Source of the DNA: a virus
Length of the DNA: 64,000 bases
Virus record (IMG/VR): IMGVR_UViG_3300028840_006156
Reading direction: 5' to 3' (one strand)
Positions 3,810 through 59,781 of this stretch are shown here, one piece after another. The position numbers were made by a program, and so were the translations under genes. Within the stretch, counting starts at the first letter, position 1. Every line of letters begins with the position of its first letter. Under the pieces are notes generated by a model that saw nothing but the letters and a program-made list of their open reading frames with translations, did no database searches and had not been told where the DNA came from.

Positions 3810-3837
3810 CTACCGCGAGCCCCACCGATCGCTTCCC
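3810..3837 (-). promoter_or_regulatory. GGGAAG-N17-GGTAG promoter motif
   Basis: 7 nt before ATG 3802. Confidence 0.8.
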
Positions 3838-3839
3838 GC

Positions 3840-4730
3840 TCACCGCGCCGGCAGGTCGAAGAGGAACGTTTGCAGACCCTCGGTCCGCGGCTGCACGCTG
3901 ATCACGAACCGGACCACGCCGCCGCCATTGGCCTCGACCTCGACGCGGGCTTCGACGGCCGCCTCGCGTACGTCGGGCTCGAACTGGATCTGCTCGCGCA
4001 CGCGCACGGCGATCTGCTGGACGTCGTATGGCCGCGCGACGCGCTTGGCGAAGCTGGTCAGGCCGTAGTTGGGTAGGTGCGAGAAGGCCCCGACCTCGGT
4101 CTGGATCCGCTGGAGGATTCGCGTCTTCAGTGACTCGGCGTTGTCCGCGAGGACGAGCTCGCCGGCCTCGTCGTAGCGCCAGATCCGCTCTCGCGCGACG
4201 GGCAGACCGGTGACCGGGTCGATCTCGAAGAAGGGGTTCGACCAGTCGCCGTAGGTGTCGACGGCCGCGATCCCGGTCCGGTTGCGCAGCGGACGGTCGC
4301 GCGCGGTCACGATGAAGATCGTCTGGCCGCCGAACTTCTGGCAGTTCGCGCCGAGGATCGGTCCGACGAGCTGGACCGCGTACTCGATCCCGGGCTCGAG
4401 GGTCGGCGCCGTCCAGACATGTAGCTGCGTAGGATCGTCCTCGTCTTGGAGGATGTCGTTGATCACCACGCCGCGGGTGGGCCTGCGCTTGCCGGGCTCG
4501 ACGTAGATCCCACCGTCGAGGGTAGGCACCGCTGGATCGATCGGGTCGACGCGCCAGTTCAGCGCGTTGCGGCTGTCGCGGTAGCCGATCGGGTCGCGCC
4601 ACTTCGGCGGGTCGGTGAAGAAGACCGTGATCTTGTTCTCTCCGACGCACAGGGCCGTGATGATCGAGAGCAGGCCCGGTCCGCCCCAGGGCGCGACGGT
4701 GCCGAAGGGCAGGATCCCGAAGCCGCTCAC
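3840..4730 (-). CDS. baseplate wedge gp25/gpW-like protein with N-terminal beta-rich (Ig-like) domain
   Basis: C-terminal ILQRIQTEVG.F..LPNYG...QIQFEPDVREA matches gp25/W family; adjacent to J. Confidence 0.75.
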   Translation of the reverse strand: MSGFGILPFGTVAPWGGPGLLSIITALCVGENKITVFFTDPPKWRDPIGYRDSRNALNWRVDPIDPAVPTLDGGIYVEPGKRRPTRGVVINDILQDEDDPTQLHVWTAPTLEPGIEYAVQLVGPILGANCQKFGGQTIFIVTARDRPLRNRTGIAAVDTYGDWSNPFFEIDPVTGLPVARERIWRYDEAGELVLADNAESLKTRILQRIQTEVGAFSHLPNYGLTSFAKRVARPYDVQQIAVRVREQIQFEPDVREAAVEARVEVEANGGGVVRFVISVQPRTEGLQTFLFDLPAR

Positions 4731-4748
4731 GCGTCGAGGGTACTACGC

Positions 4749-4775
4749 GGGAAGCGATCGGGTGGCGGTGGGTAC
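4749..4775 (+). promoter_or_regulatory. GGGAAG-N16-GGTAC promoter motif
   Basis: 8 nt before ATG 4784; back-to-back with TACCCT of gene 4730. Confidence 0.75.
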
Positions 4776-4783
4776 TTGTGGCG

Positions 4784-5203
4784 ATGAGTGAAGATCTCAG
4801 CGACAGGCTCCGCGCCGAGGTCGAGCGGCTCACCGCGGAGGCCGCCCGCCTACGGGAGCGGGTCGCCGAACTCGGGCGCATGCTGTGCATCAATGCGGCC
4901 GAGGATGCGCCCGCCGCGGAGCGCTCTTGTGCATTCATCGCTCGAGCGCGAGAGTTGGTCTGCTTGGAGTTGATCGGGCGACGCCCGTGTGTGCGGTGCG
5001 AGGAGATGTGTGACAGTCAAATGGAGCACATCGAGAGCAACGACTACAGGCCCTGGCCCATGTGCGCAGGCTGTGCTGAAGAGGTCGAAGGGTGGAACGA
5101 CGGCACCCCTACAGGGGCCAAGCCCGCGGAGCATCACGCTGACTGCACGCCCACGTCTCACTGCGGCGGCGAGGGCTGCCCTGGGAAGGCGTCTGACTGG
5201 TGA
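4784..5203 (+). CDS. coiled-coil plus Cys-rich hypothetical protein
   Basis: CVRC, CAGC and HHxxC motifs. Confidence 0.6.
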   Translation: MSEDLSDRLRAEVERLTAEAARLRERVAELGRMLCINAAEDAPAAERSCAFIARARELVCLELIGRRPCVRCEEMCDSQMEHIESNDYRPWPMCAGCAEEVEGWNDGTPTGAKPAEHHADCTPTSHCGGEGCPGKASDW

Positions 5204-5948: not shown

Positions 5949-6494
5949 CTAGCACGCGCAGGCGCACGACCCGGCCGGGTGGGGGAGCAGGATCAGCGTG
6001 TAGCCGGCCTCGAGCACCGAGCACCCGGAGTTCGCCGCGGAAAAGGCCGGGGCGCCGCCGCAGACAGTTCCGAAGCCAGCGCCGCCCGGAGCGGTGCACA
6101 CGAAGCTGCTCGGCCCCAGCGAGACCGAGGCGAGCGACCACGGCCCAGCCACGACGGTCTTCGTCACGGTGCCGCCGTCGGTGAGCGTGAGCGCCCAGAA
6201 TCCGTAGCCGAGCCAGGTCGTGGTCGACTCGCCGGGCGGGACCGAGATCAGCACGACGCCCGTGGTCGCGCCGCCTGCAGGGCTCTGGTCGACATCGACC
6301 GCGAGCGAGTGCGCGACGATCGACGTGTTCGGGGATGCGTAGATCGACGCCGTCCCCGAGAAGCCCGTGAGCGAGAGCGGCCTTCCGGTGCGCGCGTCGA
6401 TCATCCGCAGCCGGACGTCGATCGAGTTGCCCCGCTGCGCTTGAAGCGTCAGCGGGACAGGACAGATCGTCTGCGCGATCGGGTCGAGGGCCAT
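5949..6494 (-). CDS. putative baseplate/fibre attachment protein (BppU-N-like) with Cys-rich tail
   Basis: QRGNSIDVRLRMIDARTGRPLSLTG pattern; TACCCT-N6-ATG. Confidence 0.55.
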   Translation of the reverse strand: MALDPIAQTICPVPLTLQAQRGNSIDVRLRMIDARTGRPLSLTGFSGTASIYASPNTSIVAHSLAVDVDQSPAGGATTGVVLISVPPGESTTTWLGYGFWALTLTDGGTVTKTVVAGPWSLASVSLGPSSFVCTAPGGAGFGTVCGGAPAFSAANSGCSVLEAGYTLILLPHPAGSCACAC

Positions 6495-6645: not shown

Positions 6646-6673
6646 ATACCCGCGAGTTCGCCGATCGCTTCCC
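6646..6673 (-). promoter_or_regulatory. GGGAAG-N17-GGTAT promoter motif with no adjacent start codon
   Basis: Exact spacing; followed by ~150 bp intergenic DNA. Confidence 0.6.
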
Positions 6674-8981: not shown

Positions 8982-9431
8982 ATGGCGATCAACCCCGACC
9001 AAACCGTCCAGCAGCACGACAACGTGCCCATGTCCGAGATCTTCGCGGCCACGGCCAAGATCGCTCGAGACCTGAGCGGCCTCGACTTGATCGGGGCCAA
9101 CGCCGACGTCGTCACCATGACCTACCGCGGCGCGCCGGCGACGCTGACCAACGTCGATGTGACGCTCGGCGGGGCGATCGATGTCGACGCCACCGTCACC
9201 GTCTCGATCGAGGGCACCAACCCGAGCGGACCCGCTCCGGCGTTCCCGGCCGGCGTCCTGACGATCCCTGCTGCGGGCTCCGCCGCAGGCAACACCTACA
9301 GCGCGGCGCCGGACACGGACAACGCGGTCGTCGACGGCAACCGGATCAGCTTCACCGTTGGCGGTGGCAACACCCTGGCCACCTTCGCCGACGTCTCGAT
9401 CGCCCTCGACTTCGCTCCGGTGGCGACATGA
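8982..9431 (+). CDS. putative capsid decoration/virion protein
   Basis: Ala/Thr/Gly/Val-rich jelly-roll-like composition; start MAINPDQ chosen. Confidence 0.5.
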   Translation: MAINPDQTVQQHDNVPMSEIFAATAKIARDLSGLDLIGANADVVTMTYRGAPATLTNVDVTLGGAIDVDATVTVSIEGTNPSGPAPAFPAGVLTIPAAGSAAGNTYSAAPDTDNAVVDGNRISFTVGGGNTLATFADVSIALDFAPVAT

Positions 9432-9547
9432 GCGGCGGCAAGAAGCGGCGCGCGCGCGAGGCCGCGGTCACCATTGAGACCGAGCCCGTCGAGCAGAAGA
9501 CGAAGCGCAAGACCCGGCGCAAGTCGAAGAAGGTCGAGGCCGAGTGA
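9428..9547 (+). CDS. small basic protein (39 aa)
   Basis: MSGGKKRRAREAAVTIETEPVEQKTKRKTRRKSKKVEAE; coupled on both sides. Confidence 0.55.
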   Translation: MSGGKKRRAREAAVTIETEPVEQKTKRKTRRKSKKVEAE

Positions 9548-9765
9548 TGCCGCTCAAGAAGGGCTACTCGGGCAAGACGATCGGCAAGAACATCAAGGCC
9601 GAGATGAAGGCTGGCAAGCCGAAGAAGCAGGCGACCGCGATCGCCCTGTCGACGGCTCGGACGGCTGCGAAGAAGGCCGGCAAGCCGAGCAAGGGGCCGA
9701 AGCCTCCTGCGAAGAAGAAGCCGCCGCGCAAAAACAAGCGGCGGCCGAAGACCCGCAAGCGCTAG
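9547..9765 (+). CDS. Lys-rich basic phage protein (MPLKKG...KQATAIALS family)
   Basis: Recognisable widespread phage motif; TGATG overlap. Confidence 0.7.
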   Translation: MPLKKGYSGKTIGKNIKAEMKAGKPKKQATAIALSTARTAAKKAGKPSKGPKPPAKKKPPRKNKRRPKTRKR

Positions 9766-9890
9766 AGTCGCTCCCCCGGCACAGTGACGTCGTCGACGAA
9801 GTAGGCTTCGCTCATGTTGCGCATGACCCCGAGAGTGGTCCGCTCGACAACGCGCTCAGACCTGCCGGTGATCTCGGTGTCATGCCCGAC

Positions 9891-9918
9891 CTACCGCCGC
9901 GGGGCCCGCCCGCTTCCC
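9891..9918 (-). promoter_or_regulatory. GGGAAG-N17-GGTAG promoter motif
   Basis: 7 nt before ATG 9883, which opens only a 23-codon ORF. Confidence 0.7.
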
Positions 9919-10850: not shown

Positions 10851-10878
10851 GGGAAGCGAACAGCAGGCCGACGGGTAG
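10851..10878 (+). promoter_or_regulatory. GGGAAG-N17-GGTAG promoter motif
   Basis: 7 nt before ATG 10886. Confidence 0.8.
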
Positions 10879-10885
10879 ACCGAGC

Positions 10886-11443
10886 ATGGGCACCGAGTTC
10901 ATCATCGCGTCGAAGTCGAGCCGATCCTACGTCGACCTGCACAAGGGGCCGTGGGATTTCGTGGACTGGTCGCGGACCGGAGATGCGCTCCGGCTGGAGA
11001 TTGTTCGCGTGCTCGACGAATGGCTCACCTGGCCCCGGGTTGACTGTGAGGATGTTGCAGCACGAATCGTCGATGCAGTCGGTCAGCTGCCTTCAGACCG
11101 CGCGCTGGTCAGCGAGCACGCGGTCGAGTGGGAGGATGCCCGTATGCCGGACCCTGACCAGCGGGCGTATGAGGGTCTCCCGCCCGACCCCTATCGGTGC
11201 GTCGGGTCTCGATTTCGGGAAGCGCCCGCGGTGTCGGCGGGTAGTCCGGGCATGAAGATCCAAGTCACTCCGACCCATGACCAAGTCATCGCCGCGCTCG
11301 CCATTGTGTGGGGCTGTTCGCCCGAGGACATCACGAGCACCTCCGACGGCGTCTCGACGATCTACGAGATCAACACCGACGTGAAGGGCATCAACAAGGC
11401 CGAGCGCGCGATCGCCAAGCTGACGAAGGAGCAGGGCGAGTGA
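10886..11443 (+). CDS. hypothetical protein with an internal in-frame start at 11252
   Basis: Second promoter motif lies inside the ORF. Confidence 0.6.
   Translation: MGTEFIIASKSSRSYVDLHKGPWDFVDWSRTGDALRLEIVRVLDEWLTWPRVDCEDVAARIVDAVGQLPSDRALVSEHAVEWEDARMPDPDQRAYEGLPPDPYRCVGSRFREAPAVSAGSPGMKIQVTPTHDQVIAALAIVWGCSPEDITSTSDGVSTIYEINTDVKGINKAERAIAKLTKEQGE
11217..11244 (+). promoter_or_regulatory. intragenic GGGAAG-N17-GGTAG promoter motif
   Basis: 7 nt before in-frame ATG 11252 (MKIQVTP). Confidence 0.75.
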
Positions 11444-13842: not shown

Positions 13843-14058
13843 CTAGTACGGGATCGGGCGCCCCATGCGATGGCCTTCGATCGCGTGGTAGTGCCTGCGG
13901 CCACCTCGGCGGTGCGGCGTGTGGTAGCGGCGACCGTTCTCGACCCGACCCGTGTCGACGATCGTGCGACTTCCGTCGGCGTTGATTCGAATCGCGCACA
14001 CCACCGTGGTCGCGGGCTCATCGCCGAAGTCGACGCCGACGAATATCCCATCGCCCAT
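13843..14058 (-). CDS. 71-aa protein resembling the first strands of the terminase RNase H-like nuclease domain
   Basis: IFVGVDFGDEPATTVVCAIRINADGSRTIVD vs TerL CFTGIDLGSGKAPGSDRTAMVTVKLRADGKRQVVD; TGATG coupling. Confidence 0.55.
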   Translation of the reverse strand: MGDGIFVGVDFGDEPATTVVCAIRINADGSRTIVDTGRVENGRRYHTPHRRGGRRHYHAIEGHRMGRPIPY

Positions 14059-14327
14059 CAGTTCACGCTCACGTTCCCCCACGCGGGCTCATCGAGCCGC
14101 AGCGGGATGATGATCGCGCCCGCGCATCGAACGGCCTTCGCGTGTTCGAGGGCGAGCGTGTAGGTGCTAAAAGCCGCCGTCGAGCCCGCGTCATCCTCGC
14201 TCTCGTGGACCGCCGCGACCACCACGACCATCTTCGGGTCCGCGTCGACGGCCGCCCAGAACGCCGCCTCGTTGGCCTCGGCGTCCTCCTCGTAGTTCGG
14301 GACGATGACCTGGATCGACTCAGCCAT
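14058..14327 (-). CDS. hypothetical acidic protein
   Basis: Coupled operon from motif at 15655. Confidence 0.55.
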   Translation of the reverse strand: MAESIQVIVPNYEEDAEANEAAFWAAVDADPKMVVVVAAVHESEDDAGSTAAFSTYTLALEHAKAVRCAGAIIIPLRLDEPAWGNVSVN

Positions 14328-14589
14328 CTGTCCACTCCTCGGGGTCTTCGGAGAACTCCTCGATCAATCGGCTCAGCTGTCGGTCGAGGAGCTTGATCCC
14401 CATAGCGAACTCCGCGAACTCGGTCTCTCCGACGTGGCCGAAGTGGTGCGTGTTGCCGTTGCCCTGCCCGAGGGCGACGAACAACAGGCCGCGGACACGA
14501 CCGGCCTCCGCTGCTTCGAGCAGTTCGCGAAGCTTCACGATCACGTCCTCGTCGGGATCGGCCGGTCGCAGCTCGGTAACTTCAGCCAC
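14320..14589 (-). CDS. hypothetical phage protein (LRELLEAAEAGRVRGL family)
   Basis: GTG start overlapping upstream stop. Confidence 0.6.
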   Translation of the reverse strand: MAEVTELRPADPDEDVIVKLRELLEAAEAGRVRGLLFVALGQGNGNTHHFGHVGETEFAEFAMGIKLLDRQLSRLIEEFSEDPEEWTDG

Positions 14590-15619
14590 GGATCGCCTCG
14601 TCGGGATGCTCGACCACGAAGACGAGGTAGGTCTTACTCGCGTCGATCGGCTTCTTGCTGACGATCGCGGGCTCGGGGATCTTGTAGGTGTCCGGTGGTG
14701 CGACGGTCTCGAACATGCGTGCGTCGACGACGTCGAGGCCGCTGCCCCACGCAAGACCGGCGACGTCCAGCTCGCGCCCGAGATCATCGCGGACCTTGAA
14801 CGTCGAGTACAGCGATGTCACGCCCTCCGGTTCGGGTTCGAGTCCCTCGGTCCAGATCCGAAGCTCGCCGATGTCCGCGTCACGCCAGCCAAGGCCATCC
14901 GGCGTGGCGCCCAGCTGCTCGGCGTCGGCGAGGAACTTGAGCACCTCGTCGGCCGCGTCTCGGGTGTCGTCGGGCAGAGTGAACTCGACGAGCAGGCGGT
15001 TGGCCGGGAGCGGCTGCATGTCGTCCGTCAACTCGACGTCATGCGCGTAGCCGGCGACCCCTTCGACGCGGTGAGCATCGCCGGTCGACCAGCCGCCCTC
15101 GCGCGCAACGATCGGAGCGATCCAGGCCGCGCCCATCTGCCGCGCGGCGGCCTCGGCCTTCGACTTCGTGACTCGCCAAGCGGTCGGTCGGCAGCCGTCC
15201 CAGACCGGCTCGCCGTCGATCATCTCGTGGCTGAGGATGCCCCAGCCGCCGACCATCGGAGGGCCTTCGTGTGCGCGGGCCTCCTCGTCGTCGATGTCGG
15301 CCTCGGTCATCTCGTCGACATCGGGCGGGACGATCGGGCAGCCCTCGCCATCCAGGTACACGTACCCATCCCCGTGCACGAGCGTCGGAGCCTCGCGCAA
15401 GACTTTCGCCGCGGCCTGGACGTCGGCGAGGGTGAACGGCCGAAGGTGCGCGAGTACGACATCGCACGTGGCGATCATCAGATCGCGGTTCGGCGGCGGG
15501 ACCTCTGACCATGGCTTCGCACTCGCCTTGCGAGTCTCGTATCCGTGGTCGGGCGCGAGGCGTTCGTAGGTCTCATGAAACAGCTGCGCGAGTTGCTCGG
15601 GCGTTTCGATCTTGCTCAT
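14582..15619 (-). CDS. multi-domain hypothetical protein
   Basis: N-terminal LAQLFHETYERLAP.HGYETR phage motif; starts 8 nt after motif. Confidence 0.65.
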   Translation of the reverse strand: MSKIETPEQLAQLFHETYERLAPDHGYETRKASAKPWSEVPPPNRDLMIATCDVVLAHLRPFTLADVQAAAKVLREAPTLVHGDGYVYLDGEGCPIVPPDVDEMTEADIDDEEARAHEGPPMVGGWGILSHEMIDGEPVWDGCRPTAWRVTKSKAEAAARQMGAAWIAPIVAREGGWSTGDAHRVEGVAGYAHDVELTDDMQPLPANRLLVEFTLPDDTRDAADEVLKFLADAEQLGATPDGLGWRDADIGELRIWTEGLEPEPEGVTSLYSTFKVRDDLGRELDVAGLAWGSGLDVVDARMFETVAPPDTYKIPEPAIVSKKPIDASKTYLVFVVEHPDEAIRG

Positions 15620-15627
15620 CGACCGGT

Positions 15628-15655
15628 CTACCCGCGAGCGCGCCGGGTGCTTCCC
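15628..15655 (-). promoter_or_regulatory. GGGAAG-N17-GGTAG promoter motif inside palindrome GCTTCCCGGGAAGC
   Basis: 8 nt before ATG 15619. Confidence 0.8.
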
Positions 15656-15667: not shown

Positions 15668-16828
15668 CTAGCTCAGCGCCGGCACGCGGATCACGGTTCC
15701 TCGCGGAACGGTCGGCGAGAAGAAGCCGTTGTACTCGCTGATCTCCGTCCACTGGCTCGGGTCGCCGTACTTCTCGCGCGCGATGTCTCGCAGCGACGTG
15801 AAGCTGTCCGCGAAGATCGTCGCCAGGATGTCCTCGGTCTGAAACAGCGCCGCGAGCCGCTGCTGGTCCCGCGCGAAGCTCGACAGTTCGATCAGCCGAT
15901 CGCGCAGCTGTTGCTGGACGAGGTTGGCGATCTGGACCGAGTCCGCGTCGCCGACCAGCGCGCGCTCGCCCGCGGCGCTCCGGTTGGTGTCGAACAGCGA
16001 GAGCAAGTCGAGGACCTGCGAGCGAACCTGCTCGAGCGCCCCGGTGATCGTGTTGATCAGGTCGAAGGGGGCCGTGGCGATCGAGACGATCTGCTGCAGC
16101 GCGTCGACGAGGCTCTCGACGGTCGAGCCCAGCTGAAGGATCGGCCCGATCACCTTCGTCGTGAACGCGTTGGGCTGCTTGAGCGCGGCGAGCTCGAGCA
16201 GGTTTTCGTTGATCGATGCGAGGATGTCGGCAAGGCCGTTGGCCGTCGTAAGGGCGTTGTACTTCGTCGCGCGCTTGACCGGCGAGAACTGCGTGAGGCC
16301 GGTCCAGGTGAACTCCATCTCCCACGCGATGTCGTTGATCCGGTCGAAGTCGGCCGAGTACCGCGTGATCCGGCCGTAGCGGACGTACTGGTCCCACGAG
16401 AACCGCAGCTGCTGCCCCTCGACCATCATCAACTCGACGGCCGCGTCGACGGTGCGCGCGAGCCGAGCCGGCTGCGTCCCTGGGAACACGTTGGACGACT
16501 GGAACACCGCGCCCGAGGCGATCGAGTTCTGCGACTGGGCGCCCGGGGAGACCTGCGGGTAGTTTACGAGCTCGACGCCGTTGTCCTCGTCGGCGCTGAG
16601 CAAAAACTTGTCGTGCCAGGCTCCGCGCAGCGTCGTCGGCTCGAGGCGGTTCCCGATCACCTGCTGGTTGGCGACGGGGTTGCCGGGCAGCCAGGTCGTG
16701 TTGACCTGCAAGATCCGCGAGAGCTGCAGCGGGCGAAACGGGAGCGCGCGGCCCTTGAAGAGGAGCACCCGGCGCGAGCCGGTCGTCTGCTCGAGCACGA
16801 CGGGGGACGCGAACTGCTGCTCAGCCAT
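15668..16828 (-). CDS. tail tube initiator/baseplate protein with C-terminal LysM (gpU+gpX-like)
   Basis: C-terminal SLRDIAREKYGDPSQWTEISEYNG...GTVIRVP is LysM-like; directly after tape measure. Confidence 0.8.
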   Translation of the reverse strand: MAEQQFASPVVLEQTTGSRRVLLFKGRALPFRPLQLSRILQVNTTWLPGNPVANQQVIGNRLEPTTLRGAWHDKFLLSADEDNGVELVNYPQVSPGAQSQNSIASGAVFQSSNVFPGTQPARLARTVDAAVELMMVEGQQLRFSWDQYVRYGRITRYSADFDRINDIAWEMEFTWTGLTQFSPVKRATKYNALTTANGLADILASINENLLELAALKQPNAFTTKVIGPILQLGSTVESLVDALQQIVSIATAPFDLINTITGALEQVRSQVLDLLSLFDTNRSAAGERALVGDADSVQIANLVQQQLRDRLIELSSFARDQQRLAALFQTEDILATIFADSFTSLRDIAREKYGDPSQWTEISEYNGFFSPTVPRGTVIRVPALS

Positions 16829-16830: not shown

Positions 16831-16858
16831 GGGAAGTGTACGCGGGGCTCGGCGGTAA
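16831..16858 (+). promoter_or_regulatory. GGGAAG-N17-GGTAA motif overlapping TACACT of gene 16828
   Basis: 8 nt before ATG 16867. Confidence 0.8.
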
Positions 16859-16866
16859 AACAGGCG

Positions 16867-19556: not shown

Positions 19557-19568
19557 CGCACGAGCGTA

Positions 19569-42963: not shown

Positions 42964-43098
42964 ATGGACATCGACCTCGACGGGCTCTTTCTCGCACTAC
43001 TGGCCATGGTGACCCTGATCGTGATGGTCGTGGTCGCAGGGACCGTCGCACATGGCCTCGGCTATCTGCCCGCTGATGGGTCACACCGTGGTGACTGA
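42964..43098 (+). CDS. single-TM peptide (44 aa)
   Basis: GLFLALLAMVTLIVMVVVAGTV. Confidence 0.55.
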   Translation: MDIDLDGLFLALLAMVTLIVMVVVAGTVAHGLGYLPADGSHRGD

Positions 43099-44769: not shown

Positions 44770-44788
44770 TCCTGGGCCCGGTGGGTAG
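44761..44788 (+). promoter_or_regulatory. GGGAAG-N17-GGTAG promoter motif
   Basis: 7 nt before ATG 44796. Confidence 0.8.
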
Positions 44789-44795
44789 ACCGGGC

Positions 44796-48031: not shown

Positions 48032-48059
48032 GGGAAGCGGGCAGTTGCGTGCGGGGTAG
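48032..48059 (+). promoter_or_regulatory. GGGAAG-N17-GGTAG promoter motif
   Basis: 8 nt before ATG 48068. Confidence 0.8.
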
Positions 48060-48067
48060 GGACTGGC

Positions 48068-48313
48068 ATGCCCGAGCTGAAGCCCCACACCGTGTCGCTG
48101 ACGATCGCGCGATGCAAAGACTGCCCGAACCTGCACGTAGGGCGGCTGTACTCCCTCGACGGCTTTGACCGGGGGTGCGACTGGACCTGCACCGCGGCGA
48201 ACAACCGCGCGGTCGCGTCGTTCGTCGAGTGGCCGCGAGATGAACCCAAGACGATCCCGAGGTGGTGCCCGCTGCGCTCGAAGCCGAGCGAGGAGACCAG
48301 CGATGACCGATGA
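48068..48313 (+). CDS. Cys-rich phage protein (C..CP...IP.WCPL family)
   Basis: CKDCP...C..C...IPRWCPL. Confidence 0.65.
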   Translation: MPELKPHTVSLTIARCKDCPNLHVGRLYSLDGFDRGCDWTCTAANNRAVASFVEWPRDEPKTIPRWCPLRSKPSEETSDDR

Positions 48314-50801: not shown

Positions 50802-51067
50802 GTCTTCGGGTCGCGGACGTACTTCGTGACGGTGACCTGTTTGGCGATCACGGGATAGGCCGCGGTCGCGTAGCTGTGCATCTCGTTGGAGTTCCACTCC
50901 AGCGCCCAGAGCGACCCGTCATCGCGCCGGACGATCGCGCGCTCGCAGGCGTAGGACCTGCGGGTCCCTGTCGTCTCCTGATCGATGCACGCGTCGCCGT
51001 AGCTGAGTTGCTCCAACTCGGCGATCAACTCGTCAGGGTGCTCTGTATCGTTCTCGTCGAACTCCAT
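50798..51067 (-). CDS. acidic hypothetical protein
   Basis: ATG 7 nt after motif 51075-51102; sits between terS and terL. Confidence 0.6.
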   Translation of the reverse strand: MEFDENDTEHPDELIAELEQLSYGDACIDQETTGTRRSYACERAIVRRDDGSLWALEWNSNEMHSYATAAYPVIAKQVTVTKYVRDPKT

Positions 51068-51074
51068 GTCCGAC

Positions 51075-51102
51075 ATACCGCCCGCAACCCCGATCGCTTC
51101 CC
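51075..51102 (-). promoter_or_regulatory. GGGAAG-N17-GGTAT promoter motif
   Basis: Exact spacing. Confidence 0.75.
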
Positions 51103-52686: not shown

Positions 52687-52928
52687 GTGTTCGAGCTCGC
52701 GTACGGCAGGCTGGCGTGAGCACCGATCGCCCCGGCGCGAGTCGTCACGAGGAGCCATCGTCCGTCAGCCATGGACACGCCGCCCGCGTTGCGACCGTGA
52801 CCGCAGCATGAGTCCCTGGTGCGGATCCCGGCGGCGTTCAGGGCGATCACGATGTCAGCGATGCACTCGTCGACCTCGACCGGCTTGCCGTCGATCTCAA
52901 CCGTGCGTGTTGTCCCGTGCTCGCACAT
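52683..52928 (-). CDS. phage protein of the VDECIADIV.ALN..GI.T..SCCGHG family
   Basis: Recognisable motif; TGATG coupling. Confidence 0.65.
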   Translation of the reverse strand: MCEHGTTRTVEIDGKPVEVDECIADIVIALNAAGIRTRDSCCGHGRNAGGVSMADGRWLLVTTRAGAIGAHASLPYASSNT

Positions 52929-53755
52929 CAGGCGGAGCTGCCGATCGTCAAAGTCCGGTCCACGCGGATCCGGTGGTAGGCCGGGTCGCCGCCGCAACTT
53001 GGCGTCAGCCTGGTCACGATCACGTGCGACGGCTTCCTCGACAGGAGCTCAACGACCTCGTGCCACTCGAGGTCCCTGCGCGTGCGTTGGTTGTCGCCGC
53101 TCGCCCATGTCTTCTCGAAGAGAAGGCGCTGCTCGCCGTCGATCACGAAGCCCTCGATCAACTCGCCGTGGACAAGGCAGTCCTTGCCGATCAACGAGTC
53201 TGGGCACCACGACTCTGCGGGCTCGGCCTTCACGGACGCCCACTCGTCGGCGTGCTTGTCGAGCCCGAGGACCCAGCCAGATCGGTACTTCGACCTGGTC
53301 AGCGAGAGCAAGTCGCCGCGAGCGCCGTCGGGCCGAAGCGCGCGCGCTGGGAGTACGATCCGGCCGTCGTTGCACCACAGGATCTCGCTCGCGCCGTTGT
53401 GGCAGTGGATCGCCTGCACGCTAGCCATGCCGTCCTCGTGGACGGTCTCGGTCCGGTGCTCGCCGAGCCAGCGGACCGTGGCCCGCCCGTCCTCGCGCTC
53501 CCAACCGTAGGCCACGAGGCCGGTCCCGCTGACGCCGGTCGGGTCCTCGTGGCGCCAGATGACGAAGCGCCGGCTCGGCGCGTCTGGCTCGAGGACTGCC
53601 CCGGTCACGGTGTCGCGCTGCGGGTAGAACTTTGTCTCGCCGCCGTCCTTGAAGTAGAGGATCCAGGCGCGGTCGCTCGGCTCGATCCAACCGGCCCAGC
53701 CGTCGACGTTCGCAGGGTTCTTGTATCGCTCGATCTTGATCTTCGTGGGGGCCAT
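52928..53755 (-). CDS. three-domain accessory protein
   Basis: Central RRFVIWRHEDPTGVSGTGLVAYG...DG...RW...HCHNG phage domain; GAGGAGG SD. Confidence 0.65.
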   Translation of the reverse strand: MAPTKIKIERYKNPANVDGWAGWIEPSDRAWILYFKDGGETKFYPQRDTVTGAVLEPDAPSRRFVIWRHEDPTGVSGTGLVAYGWEREDGRATVRWLGEHRTETVHEDGMASVQAIHCHNGASEILWCNDGRIVLPARALRPDGARGDLLSLTRSKYRSGWVLGLDKHADEWASVKAEPAESWCPDSLIGKDCLVHGELIEGFVIDGEQRLLFEKTWASGDNQRTRRDLEWHEVVELLSRKPSHVIVTRLTPSCGGDPAYHRIRVDRTLTIGSSA

Positions 53756-53870
53756 CTGCCTCCTCGCTTTCCGCGGCCATCCGCCGCACTTCAATGGTGA
53801 CCTGCTCGGGCGAAACGATCACCTGCCAGACCGTGACGACGGTCACGACCTCCCGTGATAGCCTCGCCCC

Positions 53871-55925
53871 GTGCCCGAGGAGCAGACGAACACCAGCCTG
53901 AACCGGCTGCGCGTGCTTCACCTCGAAGACACGCCCCGCGCGAAGCTCCTCAAGCAGCGGTGGCTCTACTACACCTGCCAGCAAAACGACGGCATGGCCG
54001 TCGACTTCGACGGGTACGAGCACACGCCGGGCTTGAGCTACCTCGGCCAGCGCATGCGCGGGGTCGGATTCGTCCCGGCCAACAACGCGTCGATCCCCTT
54101 CGGCCAGAAGCGGCCGATCTGCCACAGCCTCAGCGTCGGGCATATCGTCGACACCTACACGGCGCTGCTGCTCGGCGAGGGCCGCCAGCCGGCTGTCCGC
54201 GTCGTCGGTGACCCGGCCTCGACCGAGTTGCTCGGCGCCCTGCTCAAGTACTGCGGGGCCTGGTCCGCCTTCGCCGAGGCTCGCAAGATCGGCGGAGCGA
54301 CGGGGGCGTCCGCGGTCCTCCCGGAGATCTGCAAAGGCAAGATGTCCCTGCGTGCGCTCCGGCCGGAGAACCTCTACGTCGAGTGGTCCGACGAGGCCGA
54401 CTGGATCCCGACGCTCGTGATCGAGCAGAAGCGGGTCCGGGTCGAGAAGCTCGACGAGGCCACCGGCCGCGTCGCCACCGTCGAGGTCTGGCGCACTCGA
54501 GCATGGGACGAGACCTATGCCTACGCCATCCACGACAAGGTCATTCAGTCCGACGACGGCAAGGCCGAGACCGAGGGCGTCGAGACCCCAGACGACCGGA
54601 TCGAGCTCAGCGAGCAACCCACGCCCCACGGCGCGGGCCGCTGCCCGGTCGTCTGGATCCAGAACACGACCGACAGCGACAACCCGGTCGGCGAGCCCGA
54701 CTGCGAGGCCGTCTTCGAGGCCGTCGACCAACTCGACCGGTCCCAGTCGATGCTCGTCCGAGGGTCGCGCGCCAACACGGACCCGACGCTGCTGGTGAAG
54801 GACAAGCCGATGATGCTTCGGCGCTGGCCGAACAACCGCAAGGGCTACGGGGCGAAGCTCGAGGTCAGCGAGGTCGGCGACGCGAAGCTCCTCGAGATCT
54901 CGGGCAACTCGATCAAGACGGCGTGGGAGACCGTCGTCGCGATCGGTCGGCAGATCGAGCGACGCACCGGCGTGATCCAGCCAGACCCCGAGAACTCGGG
55001 TGCCTACCAGTCCGGCGTCGCGCTGCAGCTGCTGTGGAACACGCAGCACTCGCGCGCGGCGGAGCGACGCACCCCGCTCGGGGTCGGCCTCAAGCAGGCG
55101 TTCGCGGTCATGCTCACCCAGCTTCGCCTGTTCGGCCTGCGCGAGATCGGGTCCAACGGCGAGGGCGTCGAGGTGCCGCCGCGCGAGGTCCGGGCCGAGG
55201 AGAGCGACGACATGACGCTCGAGCCTCACGAGATCGGGCCCGGTGGCGCGCTCGTCCTCGACTGGCCGGGCTTCCACCAGGCGACGCCACAGGACCTCCA
55301 GACGACCGCGACAGCCCTGAGCACCGCGACGGGCGGCCTGCCGTCGATGAGCCAGGAGACCGCGGTCGCCCACATGACCAAGCTCGCCCAGACCGACACG
55401 GACGTCGCCGAGGAGATGGACCGGATCAGCGGCGAGCGCGACGCCAAGGAGGCCGGCTTCTTCGAGGCCATGCGGCCGGACGTCGACACGGATGCGGAGC
55501 TCGCGGATCTCGAAGGCCAGGCAGGCGAGGCCCCTCAGACCGAAGGCACGGAACAAGTGCAGCACGAAGCCATGAACGGGATCCAGGTGAAGACCTTCGG
55601 CGATGTCCTCGCCCGAGTCGGCAAGGATCTGACTCCCGAGGCCGCCCGCCTCACGATCAACGAGGGATTCCCGAACACGCGCGAGCCCGCGCGAGCCGCC
55701 GAACTCGAGCGCGCGATCGATGCCCAACTCGAAGAGGCTGCGCAAGACGAAAAGAAGGGCGAGACGATCTCCAGCGGTCAGCGGTTCGACGCCCTGGGCC
55801 GACCGATCACGCGCGGAAGCTCGAAGTCAAAGGACGTGCCCGAGTCACGCGAGCGCGAGGAGACCGGCGAGCAAGGCGAGGGCGAGCCCGAGCAGGACCT
55901 CGACGACGAGCAGCTGGATCCGTAG
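53871..55925 (+). CDS. portal protein with acidic C-terminal extension
   Basis: SPP1 gp6-like features (CPVVWIQN...GEPDCE, SGVALQLLW); follows TerL; TAGCCT-N6-GTG. Confidence 0.88.
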   Translation: MPEEQTNTSLNRLRVLHLEDTPRAKLLKQRWLYYTCQQNDGMAVDFDGYEHTPGLSYLGQRMRGVGFVPANNASIPFGQKRPICHSLSVGHIVDTYTALLLGEGRQPAVRVVGDPASTELLGALLKYCGAWSAFAEARKIGGATGASAVLPEICKGKMSLRALRPENLYVEWSDEADWIPTLVIEQKRVRVEKLDEATGRVATVEVWRTRAWDETYAYAIHDKVIQSDDGKAETEGVETPDDRIELSEQPTPHGAGRCPVVWIQNTTDSDNPVGEPDCEAVFEAVDQLDRSQSMLVRGSRANTDPTLLVKDKPMMLRRWPNNRKGYGAKLEVSEVGDAKLLEISGNSIKTAWETVVAIGRQIERRTGVIQPDPENSGAYQSGVALQLLWNTQHSRAAERRTPLGVGLKQAFAVMLTQLRLFGLREIGSNGEGVEVPPREVRAEESDDMTLEPHEIGPGGALVLDWPGFHQATPQDLQTTATALSTATGGLPSMSQETAVAHMTKLAQTDTDVAEEMDRISGERDAKEAGFFEAMRPDVDTDAELADLEGQAGEAPQTEGTEQVQHEAMNGIQVKTFGDVLARVGKDLTPEAARLTINEGFPNTREPARAAELERAIDAQLEEAAQDEKKGETISSGQRFDALGRPITRGSSKSKDVPESREREETGEQGEGEPEQDLDDEQLDP

Positions 55926-56049: not shown

Positions 56050-56214
56050 TCGCCACGATCCACTCCCGGGGCCCCATGGGCTTGTTGGCCGTGGTCGATC
56101 TGGCAGTGGTCCGGCGGGGGCGAGTACGCCTACGCGTGGCCGGGGCTGCCGTCGCCGATCGACCGCAACCGCTACCGCGGGTCGGTGGCCGAGTTCGCCG
56201 GGCTGCTGGGCTAG
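56050..56214 (+). pseudogene. C-terminal remnant of a GH25 muramidase
   Basis: Manual translation PWACWPWSIWQWSGGGEYAYAWPGLPSPIDRNRYRGSVAEFAGLLG*, no in-frame ATG; upstream stop at 56047. Confidence 0.65.
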
Positions 56215-57026
56215 ACCGGGACGATGTCGCAGCGAAAGCCGGCCGCGTGCTCGTGTCCGCCACCGCCAAACTCGCGGGCGATCTCAGAGACGTCGGGCCC
56301 ATCGTCGCGAGACCGGAGCGAGCAGTAGAAGTCACCGGCCTCGCCATCCCACGACCATCCAAGGACCGGCAGGTGTGGCTCGCGCTTCTTCAGAACCTCA
56401 GCAGTCTCACTGACGAACTCGACCGGGACGTTGACTGCCCACACGCGATGGCCGCCCAGGCTGACGACCTTGGCGCGGGTGGCAAACTTACTCGCGCAAA
56501 GCTGCGTGAACCGAAGGACGGCCTGACCCTCGGCGGCAAGTTCGAGGACTGGTCGAGACGCCAAGTACTGCCAGCACTCAAACATCATCGGCATCGCGGT
56601 CATGGCCGCGTGCACCGCCTTCGTGTGCTCCAGCTTGAACCGCCACAGATCGCGGTCCTCGACGTGGCTGACGATCGGCGGCCGGGGCTGCCCAGGGTAG
56701 ATCGTGTCCCACGTGAGGCCCGCGCCCGATCGATCCATGTCGAATACGGCGAAGTCTAGGCCAGCAAGATCTTCCGCAGCGGTCTTGTGATGGTCGAGTA
56801 CGAGCAGCGAAGCCGCCGACTCGTTCATGGCGATGAGCACGTCTCGCGGGTAGCTGAAGTCGCAGATCAGAACGCGCGCTCCGTCCACGTCGGGCGGCAC
56901 GTCTCCGTACTTCGCGGGGACAAACCGCGCGTCCGGGCTGTCCATCTTGGCTACCCACGCGGCCGTGAACCCGTCGTAGCAGTTGGCGTGATAGATGACG
57001 ACGTCGAAGGCGCGCGGGATCTCCAT
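56211..57026 (-). CDS. DHH/DHHA1 phosphoesterase (NrnB-like)
   Basis: YHANCYDG, ICDFS, LDHH, EDRDLW, YCSLRS, GGGGHEHAAG. Confidence 0.9.
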   Translation of the reverse strand: MEIPRAFDVVIYHANCYDGFTAAWVAKMDSPDARFVPAKYGDVPPDVDGARVLICDFSYPRDVLIAMNESAASLLVLDHHKTAAEDLAGLDFAVFDMDRSGAGLTWDTIYPGQPRPPIVSHVEDRDLWRFKLEHTKAVHAAMTAMPMMFECWQYLASRPVLELAAEGQAVLRFTQLCASKFATRAKVVSLGGHRVWAVNVPVEFVSETAEVLKKREPHLPVLGWSWDGEAGDFYCSLRSRDDGPDVSEIAREFGGGGHEHAAGFRCDIVPV

Positions 57027-57034
57027 GCCCACGA

Positions 57035-57062
57035 CTACCGCCGAGCCCCGCGTACACTTCCC
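57035..57062 (-). promoter_or_regulatory. GGGAAG-N17-GGTAG motif overlapping TACACT of gene 57065
   Basis: 28-bp inverted copy of 16830-16857. Confidence 0.8.
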
Positions 57063-57064
57063 GG

Positions 57065-57949
57065 GTGACCGCCGACCTCGCCGCCGACTTGGCGATCGCC
57101 CAGCGAGCCCGCTACGACAAGCTGTGGGCGACACTCGAGCGACGCGAGCGAAAGCTCGTCGACGAGGCGCTCGCGGAGATCGAGCAGAATCTCAAGCGCG
57201 CGCGGCCGGGCAGCTGGTCAGCGGCCTCATCTGCGTCGACCCTGGTCCAGCTCGCGCAGGCGGTGCGTGGGCTGTCGAGCGCCCAGCTGACCCTGCTTCG
57301 GCGCGCCCTCCCGGGCGTCGCCAAGAAGGCGCAGGCCGACGCAGCTGCGTGGCTCCGCGAGCTCGACGCGAGCTTCCTCGGTGCAGCCCGGCCGCTTCGC
57401 TTCGACTCGCTCGAGTGGCTGCGGGGCTACAGCCGTCCGCTGCTCCGGTCTCGCCTCCGCGTCTATGAGCAGTCCTTCGCCCGCTACGGGGCCAAGACGG
57501 TGAGCGCGATCGAGGACGCGATCGCCAAGAACATGATCATCGGCACGCCGTGGGCCGAGGCGCGCGAGGAGGTCTACGACCTCGTGCGCGAGCAGGTCGG
57601 CGGCAAGCAGTGGATGGTGGACCGGATCGTCAGGACCGAGGTCAGCGCGGTGCACAACGCCACGACGATGGCCGCGCTACTCGAAGAAGACGCGGCCGAC
57701 GACCCGATGCTGAAGAAGCTCGTCGCGACCTTCGACCCGGTGACCGGCCAGGACTCGCGGCTTCTTCACGGCCAGACCCGGCGGCTCGACGAGTTGTTCA
57801 CCGACGTCACGACCGGCCGCAAGTTCGACGCGCCGCCCAACCGGCCCAACGACCGCGAGATCGTCGTCGGCTGGCGGCGCAGCTGGGGCGATGACCGGGG
57901 GTTCGACCGGGACACGGCCGAGGAGCACGAAGCCGCGTCGAGTGGCTAG
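57065..57949 (+). CDS. minor head morphogenesis protein (Mu gpF/SPP1 gp7-like)
   Basis: DRIVRTEVSAVHN...KKLVATFD..T...HGQ...PPNRPNDR. Confidence 0.85.
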   Translation: MTADLAADLAIAQRARYDKLWATLERRERKLVDEALAEIEQNLKRARPGSWSAASSASTLVQLAQAVRGLSSAQLTLLRRALPGVAKKAQADAAAWLRELDASFLGAARPLRFDSLEWLRGYSRPLLRSRLRVYEQSFARYGAKTVSAIEDAIAKNMIIGTPWAEAREEVYDLVREQVGGKQWMVDRIVRTEVSAVHNATTMAALLEEDAADDPMLKKLVATFDPVTGQDSRLLHGQTRRLDELFTDVTTGRKFDAPPNRPNDREIVVGWRRSWGDDRGFDRDTAEEHEAASSG

Positions 57950-58113
57950 GGCTCGCAGTCGCAGACGGTGACCGCGTCGCGCGCAAAGCAAAGCGGGCGA
58001 TCGGCGATGACCACGTACGCTGCCACGAGCGCGGCGACCAGCGCGATCCCGAGGCATGCACCCGTGGCGATATGTACGCGCCTCGCCATCCTGAGCATCT
58101 CGTCGGAGATCAT
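57946..58113 (-). CDS. single-TM protein with Cys-rich C-terminus
   Basis: TM then CFARDAVTVCDCEP. Confidence 0.55.
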   Translation of the reverse strand: MISDEMLRMARRVHIATGACLGIALVAALVAAYVVIADRPLCFARDAVTVCDCEP

Positions 58114-58322
58114 TCGCCCGCTCCAAGCTCGCGGATCGAGTCCCCGTCCGCGCACCAGCACGCGCCCTCGTCGAGGTAGCAGTCGCGCTCGAACTCGGCG
58201 GCCGCGGCCTGGCAGACGTCGTTGGCGCGCGCGTTGATGTTGAACACGGCGAAGAACGCCGCCAGCGCGAAGCCCAAGCCGAAGCCGACACCAAACACGA
58301 GCCAGCCCTCTCCGTTGCTCAC
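58110..58322 (-). CDS. single-TM protein with Cys-rich C-terminus
   Basis: TM then CQ...CY...CWC. Confidence 0.55.
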   Translation of the reverse strand: MSNGEGWLVFGVGFGLGFALAAFFAVFNINARANDVCQAAAAEFERDCYLDEGACWCADGDSIRELGAGE

Positions 58323-59281
58323 GACGACCGCTTCCGATAGACGCCCGCGTAGGGCCCTCGAGCCACGACGATCGTCCCGAGGTGACCAAAGTGGCGCACG
58401 AACTCGCGCACGGTGATCGGGTGATCGGCCGGCTTCCTCGGCGGCGTCCCGAACTCCTTGATCCACGAGTGGGCGAAGCGCTCCGAGACCTCGCGCTCGT
58501 CCTGCTCGTCGCCGAGGTCGCTGAGCACCCACCGGCCGTCGGCGGTCTGGTCGAGGAACGACTGGCCGAGGGCAACCGGGAGCACGGGCCCGCCGTAGTC
58601 GCGCGGGTCAGCCCAGAAGGCGATCATGGTGTCGAAGGGCGCGCCCTGCCACGGCGTAACGTCGTCCTCGTGGCAGCTCGCCAGCGACTTGAGCTCGGGG
58701 CCGACGGCCCAGTTCTCGCCGATGCAGCGAAACGGAGGAGGCAACTCCTCCTCGTCGGCCGCGTAGAACCACGCTCGGAGGTAGCGCTCGCGCGCCGCCT
58801 CGCGCTTGCCTTCGGGCAGGTCGAGGAACTCGGACTCAGGCAGTTGGCGGATCGGGATCGGCCGCCAAAAGACGAAGCGCTTGTCCGCGATCAGCCACGC
58901 GTCGGCGCTGCCGAAGATGTACTCGTGCGCCCAGGAACTCCCGCGGAAGGGCGTGACCGAGATCCCCGGCATGCCCCGGCCGCGACCGAGTTCGTGCGCC
59001 CGACGAGTGAACGCCTTGATCTTCGTGCCGTAGGGGTGATTCGAGAACCAGCAGTCGGCGACTGAGGCGTCGACTGTGAGGCCGTCACCGCCGTCGGGCG
59101 TGCCGTCGCAGGTGAAGTCCGCGCGCACGAGGCCAGCGTTGATCGCCGCGGCGTTGGTGGCGAGGTCGATCAGGGTCCGGCCGGACCCCTTCGGCACGAG
59201 CAGGCGCCGCATGGGTCGCGTGATCTCGGTCGGGGTCAGGTAGTGCTCGTTGTTCGAGCTGAGGCAGGCTTGGATCTTCAT
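58319..59281 (-). CDS. phage N6-adenine DNA methyltransferase-like protein
   Basis: SNNEHYLTP, DLA, DGL...WFSNHPY (NPPY variant), KRFVF. Confidence 0.75.
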   Translation of the reverse strand: MKIQACLSSNNEHYLTPTEITRPMRRLLVPKGSGRTLIDLATNAAAINAGLVRADFTCDGTPDGGDGLTVDASVADCWFSNHPYGTKIKAFTRRAHELGRGRGMPGISVTPFRGSSWAHEYIFGSADAWLIADKRFVFWRPIPIRQLPESEFLDLPEGKREAARERYLRAWFYAADEEELPPPFRCIGENWAVGPELKSLASCHEDDVTPWQGAPFDTMIAFWADPRDYGGPVLPVALGQSFLDQTADGRWVLSDLGDEQDEREVSERFAHSWIKEFGTPPRKPADHPITVREFVRHFGHLGTIVVARGPYAGVYRKRSS

Positions 59282-59718
59282 GGCGCCTTGGCCTCCAACG
59301 CGAGCACGTGAAGCAGTCCGACGTCCTCGATCGGCCAGTGCTCGCTCAGGTCCTCGCGCTCCCAGGGGTCGAACCCGTTGGCGTATGACCAGCCCCATCC
59401 GAGCTCGTGGTCGTATGTCACTCCGTCGGGGGCCTCGCGCCCCCACGCCTTCCGCACCAGTCCGAGCAGCGAGCCGTTGGCCTCGTCGCTGCCCCAGCCG
59501 AAGACGGTGAGCGCGAGTTCGAGGCGCGAGCCGTCGAGGCCGAGCCGGTCGATCGCTGCGCGGGCGCGTGCGTGCAGCGGGTCGACATCCTCGGGTGGCT
59601 TCAAGAGGTCGATGGCCGCCTGTAGTGCGTCGGCGACGTCCGGATCTGGATGCGGGCCGAACATCGCGTCAGCGTGCGCGCATCGCAAGGCGGTTAGGTC
59701 GGGTGGCCTGATGGTCAT
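59278..59718 (-). CDS. hypothetical protein
   Basis: ATG 7 nt after motif. Confidence 0.6.
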   Translation of the reverse strand: MTIRPPDLTALRCAHADAMFGPHPDPDVADALQAAIDLLKPPEDVDPLHARARAAIDRLGLDGSRLELALTVFGWGSDEANGSLLGLVRKAWGREAPDGVTYDHELGWGWSYANGFDPWEREDLSEHWPIEDVGLLHVLALEAKAP

Positions 59719-59725
59719 GCCCGGA

Positions 59726-59781
59726 CTACCGCGCACCCGTCCGGGTGCTTCCCGGGAAGCGATCCCGCCCGCGGCGGGTAG
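59726..59781. promoter_or_regulatory. divergent pair of GGGAAG-N17-GGTAG motifs sharing palindrome GCTTCCCGGGAAGC
   Basis: Minus 59726-59753 to ATG 59718; plus 59754-59781 to ATG 59789. Confidence 0.85.

Follow-up and report, generated by a model that had tools for sequence, protein, structure and literature searches.

The sigma factor gp36 of phage phiEco32 reads a phage-specific consensus placed before middle and late genes, while the early genes of that phage use the host primary sigma (PMC12276001). Here we describe a comparable arrangement, inferred from sequence, in the uncultured virus record IMGVR_UViG_3300028840_006156, of which a stretch of 64,000 nucleotides (nt), hereafter the window, was analysed. 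A bipartite motif of the form GGGAAG-N16/17-GGTA (class 1) recurs in this window directly before start codons, and a small sigma factor of the extracytoplasmic function (ECF) type is encoded near its end. The likeness to phiEco32 lies in a phage-encoded factor of the sigma-70 family, which would work with the host core RNA polymerase, and in a repeated phage-specific consensus. The differences are several. The phiEco32 consensus is a single AATGTA element centred at -11.5, whereas class 1 is bipartite, ECF-like, nearly invariant and abuts the start codon. The former serves middle and late (virion) genes, whereas class 1 precedes replication and accessory genes and the identifiable virion genes have host-type promoters. 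PhiEco32 also needs the co-factor gp79, while no gp79-like factor is known here. No close sequence relationship between the two systems is detectable, and the sigma gene described here is itself predicted to be leaderless and host-read.

Among bacterial systems, SigH and SigR recognise GGAAT-N18-20-GTT (PMC11588781). Class 1 shares with SigH/SigR/SigE promoters the GGAA.-N18-GT. layout and a two-domain sigma, but its fifth -35 base is G instead of T or C and its -10 is GTA instead of GTT, both without exception. The recognition helix of the phage sigma also differs (NTI(H/D)GRTSRSR, not GTV(M/R)SR.HRGR), and neither an anti-sigma nor autoregulation accompanies it. Promoters of the Bacillus subtilis sigma-W type combine a TGAAAC -35 element with a CGTA -10 element (PMC5758882). 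They resemble class 1 in being bipartite and in a -10 element that ends in GTA, and differ from it in their AAC and CGT cores, which are AAG and GGT in the phage. Their spacer is one base shorter than that of class 1. Finally, the housekeeping sigma-A of mycobacteria and Deinococcus uses leaderless promoters in which TANNNT stands directly before the start codon (PMC6448022, PMC4007540). Such promoters in Actinobacteria and Deinococcus, with some 6-7 nt between TANNNT and the start codon, have the same form as a second class of phage promoters (class 2) and as the promoter of the phage sigma gene. Class 1 is like them in having the start codon as predicted transcription start and no Shine-Dalgarno site, but its -10 element is GGTA, displaced by 2 nt, and a -35 element is obligatory. 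We found no directly matching published case of a leaderless ECF-type phage promoter set in the literature, and class 1 would represent a new example of a known strategy, in which a phage sigma is paired with phage-specific promoters.

Counts, spacing and start-codon geometry of class 1

The window contains 27 class-1 sites, whereas 100 dinucleotide-preserving shuffles gave an expectation of 0.06 and never a count as high as 27. A preliminary description of this DNA had listed 26 sites (17 on the plus and 9 on the minus strand); every one of its coordinates was recovered, and a further site was found at 38673 (+). For whole-phage counts we used a reconstruction of 83,253 bp composed of the window and one fetched locus, which holds 32 sites. 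The spacer is 17 nt long at 26 of the window sites and 16 nt at one (4749), with 31 and one, respectively, in the reconstruction, so that both elements stand at the fixed spacing of about 16-18 bp that ECF-type promoters need. The two elements are also tightly coupled. GGGAAG occurs 57 times in the reconstruction and is followed by an exact GGTA at N17 in 31 of these cases, with no near-variant that recurs, while GGTA-N7-[CG]RTG occurs 24 times and has an exact GGGAAG 17 nt upstream in 20. A position-weight-matrix scan added no weaker, degenerate sites, and the reversed sequence gave nothing above 8 bits. The motif was successfully detected by dyad counting; maximal-order Markov k-mer enrichment did not pick it out.

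No two class-1 spacers are alike, while the -35 and -10 elements are nearly invariant. The extended consensus is C-GGGAAG-CG-WW-C ... (C/G)GGTAG-N6-C-ATG, in which the conserved block around the -35 element (C-GGGAAG-CG-WW-C) spans about 12 nt, and the base preceding GGTA is G in 16 and C in 12 of the 32 sites. The -35 core is AAG in 32/32 sites, with the AAC core of ECF-type promoters absent and no GGAAC version present, and the -10 element is GGT(A) throughout, with no CGT core. The sites do not match SigF/SigB-type promoters either, as GGGTA is found in only 16/32 and the -35 element is GGGAAG. The reported SigF-type -35 element, GTTT, has no counterpart in GGGAAG.

Directly after GGGAAG, eight of the 32 sites carry GATC, often as CGATCG (for example 3826-3837, 4749-4760, 22562-22573 and 36881-36892), and the same is seen in the related phage G1, described below. 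Methylation might affect promoter activity at these sites, given the two or three N6/N4-methylase-like genes of the phage. The long -35 block and the frequent GATC may reflect an additional DNA-binding factor or methylation effects.

The preliminary description had also claimed an ATG or GTG just past the -10 element. This is indeed seen at 25/27 window sites, with the start codon 8 nt after GGTA at 18 sites, 9 nt at six and 10 nt at one; the chance of at least 18 of 27 falling at one fixed offset is about 2e-22. At the remaining two sites, 6673 (-) and 27162 (+), no start codon is adjacent, and the predicted fold of the leader behind 27162 was no better than that of shuffles (z -1.55). At 21/25 sites the start codon is preceded by C, and class-1 sites are always co-oriented with the downstream frame. 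The opened frames have a high third-position G+C content, as in real genes, and two of the 25 are short (9918, 23 codons; 38673, 28 codons). The flanks of site 38673 match the consensus poorly (below 14 bits), which makes it possibly a weak or a chance site.

Counted from the first base of the start codon, the GT of GGTA occupies -11/-10, position -1 is a pyrimidine and +1 a purine, as would be expected if transcription began at this codon. No space is left for a Shine-Dalgarno site between the -10 element and the start codon. With the start codon as predicted transcription start, class-1 mRNAs would be leaderless. All computational tests (bipartite structure, 17-nt spacer, co-orientation and start-codon position) agree with the leaderless promoter reading put forward in the preliminary description, and class-1 sites are very probably promoters of leaderless mRNAs.

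The phage sigma factor as candidate reader

The preliminary description had named a sigma gene at 63340-63885 as the likely source of the factor that reads these promoters. The identity of this gene was upheld by a Sigma70_r2 match (4e-18) and a TIGR02937 match above its cut-off, with a further r4_2 match below its own. The domain 2 match (PF04542, 4.4e-18) covers residues 18-82, and TIGR02937 (74.7 bits against a cut-off of 42.9) spans residues 16-170. Domain 4 (PF08281) scored 20.5 bits against a cut-off of 25.7, with a full-length alignment to SigH and SigE that covers the helix-turn-helix (HTH). The protein is small (178 amino acids, aa) and matched the r2 and r4 models only, leaving regions 1.1 and 3 without a match; an architecture of domains 2 and 4 alone agrees with the strict requirement for a -35 element. 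Among solved relatives, SigH and SigE of Mycobacterium tuberculosis stand nearest to the phage sigma, but it belongs to no described ECF subgroup among the NCBIfam subfamily and equivalog models, all of which, SigH and SigE included, scored far below their cut-offs. Among 1.84 billion representative proteins, only the sigma itself was found below 1e-30 and the next best match was at 1e-16, while a search of 5.8 billion proteins returned one copy of 100% identity and otherwise matches of 25-30% identity. Searches against GenBank phages gave identities of 23-35%, with gut and Bacteroides phage sequences only.

No anti-sigma gene lies next to the sigma gene, which is flanked downstream by an overlapping DNA-methylase-like gene (62564-63343, weak PF01555 match) and upstream by a UvrD-like helicase gene. 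Likewise, no class-1 site lies upstream of the sigma gene, as autoregulation would require. Its promoter is instead predicted to be leaderless and of the host sigma-A type. The form TAG(G/A)(A/G)T-N7-ATG stands at the sigma gene in 4/4 relatives, with diverged flanks: the hexamer reads TAGAGT in one of them and TAGGAT in the other three, namely the phage, G1 and a metagenomic relative. Two more sigmas with the NTIHGR helix (P0018 and P0020) were found on contigs of 0.9 and 3.3 kb, which are too short for a motif test, so that only the sigma promoter was compared. This conserved host-type promoter supports the phage sigma as reader of class 1, and the simplest cascade would run from host sigma-A to the phage sigma and on to class 1.

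A palindrome, GAGATCTC, lies 3-21 nt upstream of the TAGGAT of the sigma gene in 3/4 relatives (window 63890-63925, G1 and L097) and is a possible operator for sigma expression. The region upstream of the UvrD-like helicase gene (L001 7675-7790, about 66087-66202 of the reconstruction, just past the end of the window) holds neither promoter class, and scanning it for consensus promoters gave no match. It contains an A-rich block conserved with G1, GAAAAAAGAT ... GGCGGAATA ... CCCGGTTG, and the true start of the helicase is probably about 36 nt downstream of the called ATG.

We scanned three collections with a strict 17-base form of the motif, namely IMG/VR, the JGI metagenomes and 185,579 prokaryote species, each represented by one genome. 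IMG/VR yielded six matches in the 81.6-kb phage G1 and one in phage G2 (IMGVR_UViG_3300027987_000368). In the JGI metagenomes, 49 contigs matched, about 15 of them short and similar at the DNA level to the phage or to G1, and about 34 being unrelated single matches. The prokaryote species gave 24 single matches and no cluster, and tblastx of these 24 loci returned low-complexity noise only.

G1 is a well-diverged relative, with 58 of 110 predicted proteins in common with the phage, typically at 50-65% identity (about 55%). It carries 24 strict class-1 sites, or 29 if GGAAG is allowed, with a start codon 7-11 nt on at every one. Its sigma homologue (38% identity) occupies the same place, between the UvrD-like helicase and the methylase-like gene. 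At six promoters that are orthologous between the two phages, divergence is seen in the spacers but not in the -35 element, the -10 element or the ATG. This co-occurrence of motif and sigma in a diverged phage supports the sigma as reader.

Meanwhile, G2 is otherwise unrelated, having four proteins in common with the phage. Dyads were counted in it without the contig ends, which are terminal (CGCCAT)n arrays. G2 lacks the GGGAAG family and has six GGAAT-N16/17-GGTA sites where 0.5 would be expected, and a start codon follows each of them (0.1 expected); conversely, GGAAT sites are absent from the phage and from G1. The recognition helix differs in parallel, being NTI(H/D)GRTSRSR in the phage and G1, GTVMSRIYRGR in G2 and GTVMSRLHRGR in SigH. 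For the SigH helix, the positions that read -35 bases 1 (an arginine), 2 and 5 have been reported (PMC11588781). The phage and G1 retain the arginine for the first G and have other residues at the positions for bases 2 and 5. Hence, helix type and GGGAAG or GGAAT co-vary, and the -35 sequence tracks the phage sigma helix across two lineages. A phage with a SigH-like helix thus uses a SigH-like GGAAT with the same -10 and start-codon geometry, which also speaks for the phage sigma as reader. The CGCCAT hexamer arrays are present at both ends of G2 (L019 1-166 and the last ~140 nt, L023), and the call of a direct terminal repeat in G2 may rest on them.

The same data bear on a different reader, a host alternative sigma of the ECF SigH/SigE/SigR or the SigF/SigB type, with another role for the phage sigma. 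We regard this as unlikely. Written as GGAAG-N18-GTA, class 1 is two bases from the SigH/SigR consensus GGAAT-N18-20-GTT (PMC11588781), half of the sites read GGGTA, the reported -10 element of mycobacterial SigF (PMC6448022), and the GGAAT sites of G2 could be read by a host SigH. Both deviating positions are nevertheless invariant in the phage, with GGAAT, GGAAC, GGAAA, GGTT and GGTC versions absent, and the phage sigma helix departs from SigH at the very positions of specificity. Moreover, the motif showed no excess over a reversed-pattern control in 301 evenly sampled Actinomycetota genomes (four of them unpublished, G008, G055, G095 and G127, on which the result does not depend), and no bacterial contig had multiple matches. 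The lack of enrichment in any sampled bacterial genome supports the phage sigma as reader. Reliance on a stress sigma held by an anti-sigma would also be risky for a phage.

As in phage-sigma-dependent sets of the phiEco32, SPO1 or T4-late kind, a phage sigma is accompanied by a phage-specific consensus before many genes, and class 1 is probably read by the phage's own ECF-type sigma together with the host core RNA polymerase. Under this model, host sigma-A would transcribe the sigma gene from TAGGAT-N7-ATG, and the phage sigma would join the host core enzyme and read GGGAAG and GGTA as -35 and -10 elements. Transcription would start at, or within one base of, the A or G of the start codon 8 nt after GGTA, and the leaderless mRNAs would be translated without a Shine-Dalgarno site. 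About 30 transcription units would be served in this way, comprising replication and recombination operons and many single small lineage-specific genes, while the conserved virion and packaging genes would depend on host-type extended -10 promoters (TGnTANNNT-N6-start).

Several points weigh against the phage sigma as reader. A host ECF sigma with class-1 specificity may exist, as the 301 genomes may miss the host lineage or phylum. The co-variation involves two independent lineages only, and the G2 sites may be read by a host SigH. Class 1 departs from the two most conserved ECF positions, with AAG for AAC and GGT for CGT (PMC5758882), and helix position 170 is H in the phage and D in G1, yet their -35 elements are identical. 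In addition, if host sigma-A reads both the virion and the sigma genes, the model alone leaves late virion timing unexplained. We also considered and rejected a T7-like RNA polymerase as reader: the large open reading frames (ORFs) scanned with Pfam contain no RNA polymerase domain, and a bipartite layout with a 17-nt spacer is of the sigma-70 type.

Genes downstream of class 1 and overlap with predicted host-type promoters

Class-1 sites precede operons for helicase, DnaB and nuclease functions as well as many single small ORFans, several of which are inserted antisense between virion genes. Most class-1 genes are ORFans without recognisable function. The earlier claim that virion genes are never preceded by class 1 is borne out for every virion gene recognised here (baseplate J, tape measure, terminase large subunit, portal and the large conserved ORFs in the structural block), though some class-1 ORFans may be virion-related.

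Class 2 has the form TANNNT-N6-ATG/GTG and occurs 28 times in the window, against 5 expected; it is often TG-extended and has no -35 element. TG-extended -10 promoters without a -35 element are a property of sigmas of the sigma-70 family that have domain 3. Class-2 promoters precede the baseplate J, tape measure, terminase and portal genes and other large conserved ORFs of the structural block, suggesting an individual host-type leaderless promoter for almost every core gene. Being independent of class 1, this second class serves as an internal control for the leaderless reading.

The two classes also differ in the conservation of their genes. Between the phage and G1, 5/19 class-1 genes are conserved versus 26/29 class-2 genes (Fisher p = 1e-5). 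Conservation is thus far lower behind class 1, whose sites stand before the more flexible genes of the phage. This bias, and the many class-1 genes that are single-gene insertions between core genes, would also be expected if the repeats chiefly marked the edges of mobile gene cassettes, or hot spots of recombination, and had multiplied by duplication, with a secondary promoter role or none. We consider that origin very improbable, given that conservation is confined to the start codon and the two short elements, that unrelated spacers and flanks argue against recent duplication and that orientation and start-codon distance are strict. Such a role would in any case be compatible with promoter function.

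At five sites, the class-1 -35 element lies on the opposite strand of the -10 element and discriminator of a divergent class-2 promoter (Table 1). In these interlocked pairs, GGGAAG(T/C)(G/C)TAC doubles, when read as its reverse complement, as TANNNT hexamer and discriminator for the opposite gene, and the intergenic gaps are 37-38 bp. Occupancy of the -35 elements could repress the divergent class-2 promoters. This is one ground for reading GGGAAG(CG..C) as the site of an activator or sigma-appropriation factor that redirects host sigma-A, in the manner of the T4 MotA box, or as an operator. The -35 block of ~12 nt, which exceeds a typical domain-4 footprint, the GATC or CGATCG that often follows GGGAAG, and the HTH and ribbon-helix-helix-like proteins and methylases encoded by the phage would suit that reading as well. 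Yet the second element is GGTAG, with T at -10, and not TANNNT, and it stands 2 nt nearer to the start codon than the TANNNT promoters of the phage. The fixed 17-nt spacing and the invariance of this second element suit a two-domain sigma, and no MotA-like or AsiA-like protein was found among the ~60 products scanned (Pfam or PHROGs), although most of the proteins are ORFans. We therefore hold an activator or operator to be distinctly unlikely.

For the phage sigma as reader of class 1, the sharing of the host-type class by virion and sigma genes means that virion expression, if late, must be held back in some other way, and the overlap of divergent class-1 and class-2 promoters is a candidate delay device. 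A wider scheme may be put forward tentatively, and with some doubt: virion, packaging and sigma genes would use sigma-A, the flexible genes and replication operons would use a new phage-only ECF clade (NTIHGR..R.R), the 38-bp promoter-ATG unit would be a portable cassette through which newly acquired genes gain expression immediately, and competition between holoenzymes at the overlapping divergent promoters would time the virion genes.

Feature coordinates, genome setting and significance

Table 1. Class-1 sites of the window and associated promoter and gene features (class-1 sites are cited in the text by their 5' coordinate)
Feature	Position	Strand	Remarks
Class 1	3800-3837	-	GGTA-N8-ATG; 38-codon ORF 3686-3802
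Class 1	4749-4786	+	Only 16-nt spacer; ATG at 9 nt; 139-aa ORFan
Class 1	6647-6673	-	No adjacent start codon; transcript would have a leader, towards 5949-6494
Class 1	9881-9918	-	ATG at 8 nt, 23 codons only; transcript would be antisense to called plus-strand genes 8982-9765
Class 1	10851-10888	+	Predicted promoter of 185-aa ORF 10886-11443
Class 1	11217-11254	+	Within ORF 10886-11443; in-frame 63-aa product 11252-11443; orthologous site in G1 at 17016
Class 1	15617-15655	-	Predicted promoter of 345-aa ORFan and two coupled genes (14058-15619)
Class 1	16831-16869	+	150-aa ORFan; -35 overlaps TACACT -10/discriminator of divergent gene 15668-16828
Class 1	22063-22100	-	GTG start; 207-aa ORF
Class 1	22562-22599	+	89-aa ORFan; back to back with TATCAT class-2 promoter
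Class 1	26271-26308	-	GTG start; 101-aa ORF
Class 1	27162-27188	+	No adjacent start; ~100-nt leader before 27297-27749
Class 1	28792-28829	+	110-aa ORFan; overlaps divergent TAGACT class-2 promoter
Class 1	29789-29826	+	185-aa ORFan; overlaps divergent TACGCT promoter
Class 1	31977-32014	+	GTG start; heads three coupled genes 32012-33337
Class 1	33340-33377	+	DUF6283 gene and SNF2/ResIII helicase (33375-35338)
Class 1	35311-35348	+	216-aa gene; orthologous site in G1 at 41022
Class 1	36881-36920	+	ATG at 10 nt; first in operon ending in DnaB; orthologous site in G1 at 41996
Class 1	38673-38711	+	Inside gene 37671-38795; GTG 38709 in frame with the end of that gene, 28 codons, overlaps dnaB start 38788
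Class 1	40272-40309	+	62-aa ORFan; site within dnaB 3' end
Class 1	42929-42966	+	44-aa ORF, then PD-(D/E)XK nuclease 43052-44020, then 44017-44769
Class 1	44761-44798	+	109-aa ORF and genes downstream
Class 1	48032-48070	+	81-aa ORF
Class 1	51065-51102	-	89-aa ORFan; divergent from terminase large subunit
Class 1	57024-57062	-	DHH phosphoesterase 56211-57026; overlaps TACACT class-2 promoter of 57065-57949
Class 1	59716-59753	-	146-aa ORF and two coupled genes; conserved inverted repeat in spacer
Class 1	59754-59791	+	Back to back with 59753 site; 93-aa product; arrangement kept in G1 (63953/63954)
ECF-type sigma gene	63340-63876	-	178-aa form; 181-aa form starts at 63885
TAGGAT-N7-ATG of sigma gene	63874-63889	-	Predicted host sigma-A-type leaderless promoter
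Class 2, example	3396-3410
Class 2, example	19554-19568
Class 2, example	53859-53873
Class 2, example	60654-60668
Interlocked class 2/class 1	16826-16840/16831
Interlocked class 2/class 1	27157-27171/27162
Interlocked class 2/class 1	28787-28801/28792
Interlocked class 2/class 1	29786-29800/29789
Interlocked class 2/class 1	57053-57067/57062

The back-to-back pair at 59716-59791 contains, in the minus-strand spacer, a perfect inverted repeat (GCACCCG..CGGGTGC) that is conserved in G1 (63927-63980). The product of the plus-strand gene of this pair (59789-60070) is ribbon-helix-helix-like, as judged by eye, and the presence of such a product beside the repeat makes the latter a candidate operator. 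A different arrangement is seen at 10886-11443 and 11252-11443, where two genes (185 and 63 aa) are nested in frame and each has a class-1 promoter of its own.

The window represents 64 kb of a high-GC phage genome of about 84 kb and has a G+C content of 68%. The same phage was assembled independently from a sediment metagenome (84,096 bp) and a seawater metagenome (84,078 bp). Its products within the window include a portal, baseplate J, tape measure, terminase large subunit, DnaB, an SNF2-type helicase, a PD-(D/E)XK nuclease and the small sigma. No near DNA relatives were found among GenBank phages, where the portal matched at just 26% identity (Ralstonia and Komagataeibacter phages), and a search of IMG/VR with the portal returned no relative. 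A DnaB search of the Atlas for a clue to the host returned viral clusters only. The promoter style and the nearest relatives of the sigma suggest an actinobacterial host. Elsewhere in the window, a type II hammerhead ribozyme (Rfam RF02276) was found at 712-814 (-), with 42.2 bits where the gathering score is 37; the first gene (3-701, minus strand) follows immediately downstream of it. Between the terminase and portal genes, 52928-53755 (-) encodes a 275-aa product with a precomputed match to PF26761 (Acb5).

If the proposed pairing of sigma and promoter is correct, it would provide a compact orthogonal sigma-promoter pair from an uncultured high-GC phage lineage. The promoter, essentially invariant at 10 defined bases and with the starts of transcription and translation fused, would be a minimal expression part for organisms that translate leaderless mRNAs. 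It would also be a natural case for tracing how an altered domain-4 helix in an ECF sigma shifts -35 recognition from GGAAT to GGGAAG. Within the phage group, the class-1 signature is a simple finder of transcription units and true start codons. For the biology of these phages, a sigma of their own would be devoted to replication and accessory genes rather than to late genes, nearly every gene would have its own promoter, and overlapping divergent promoters for two sigmas would be a possible timing device.

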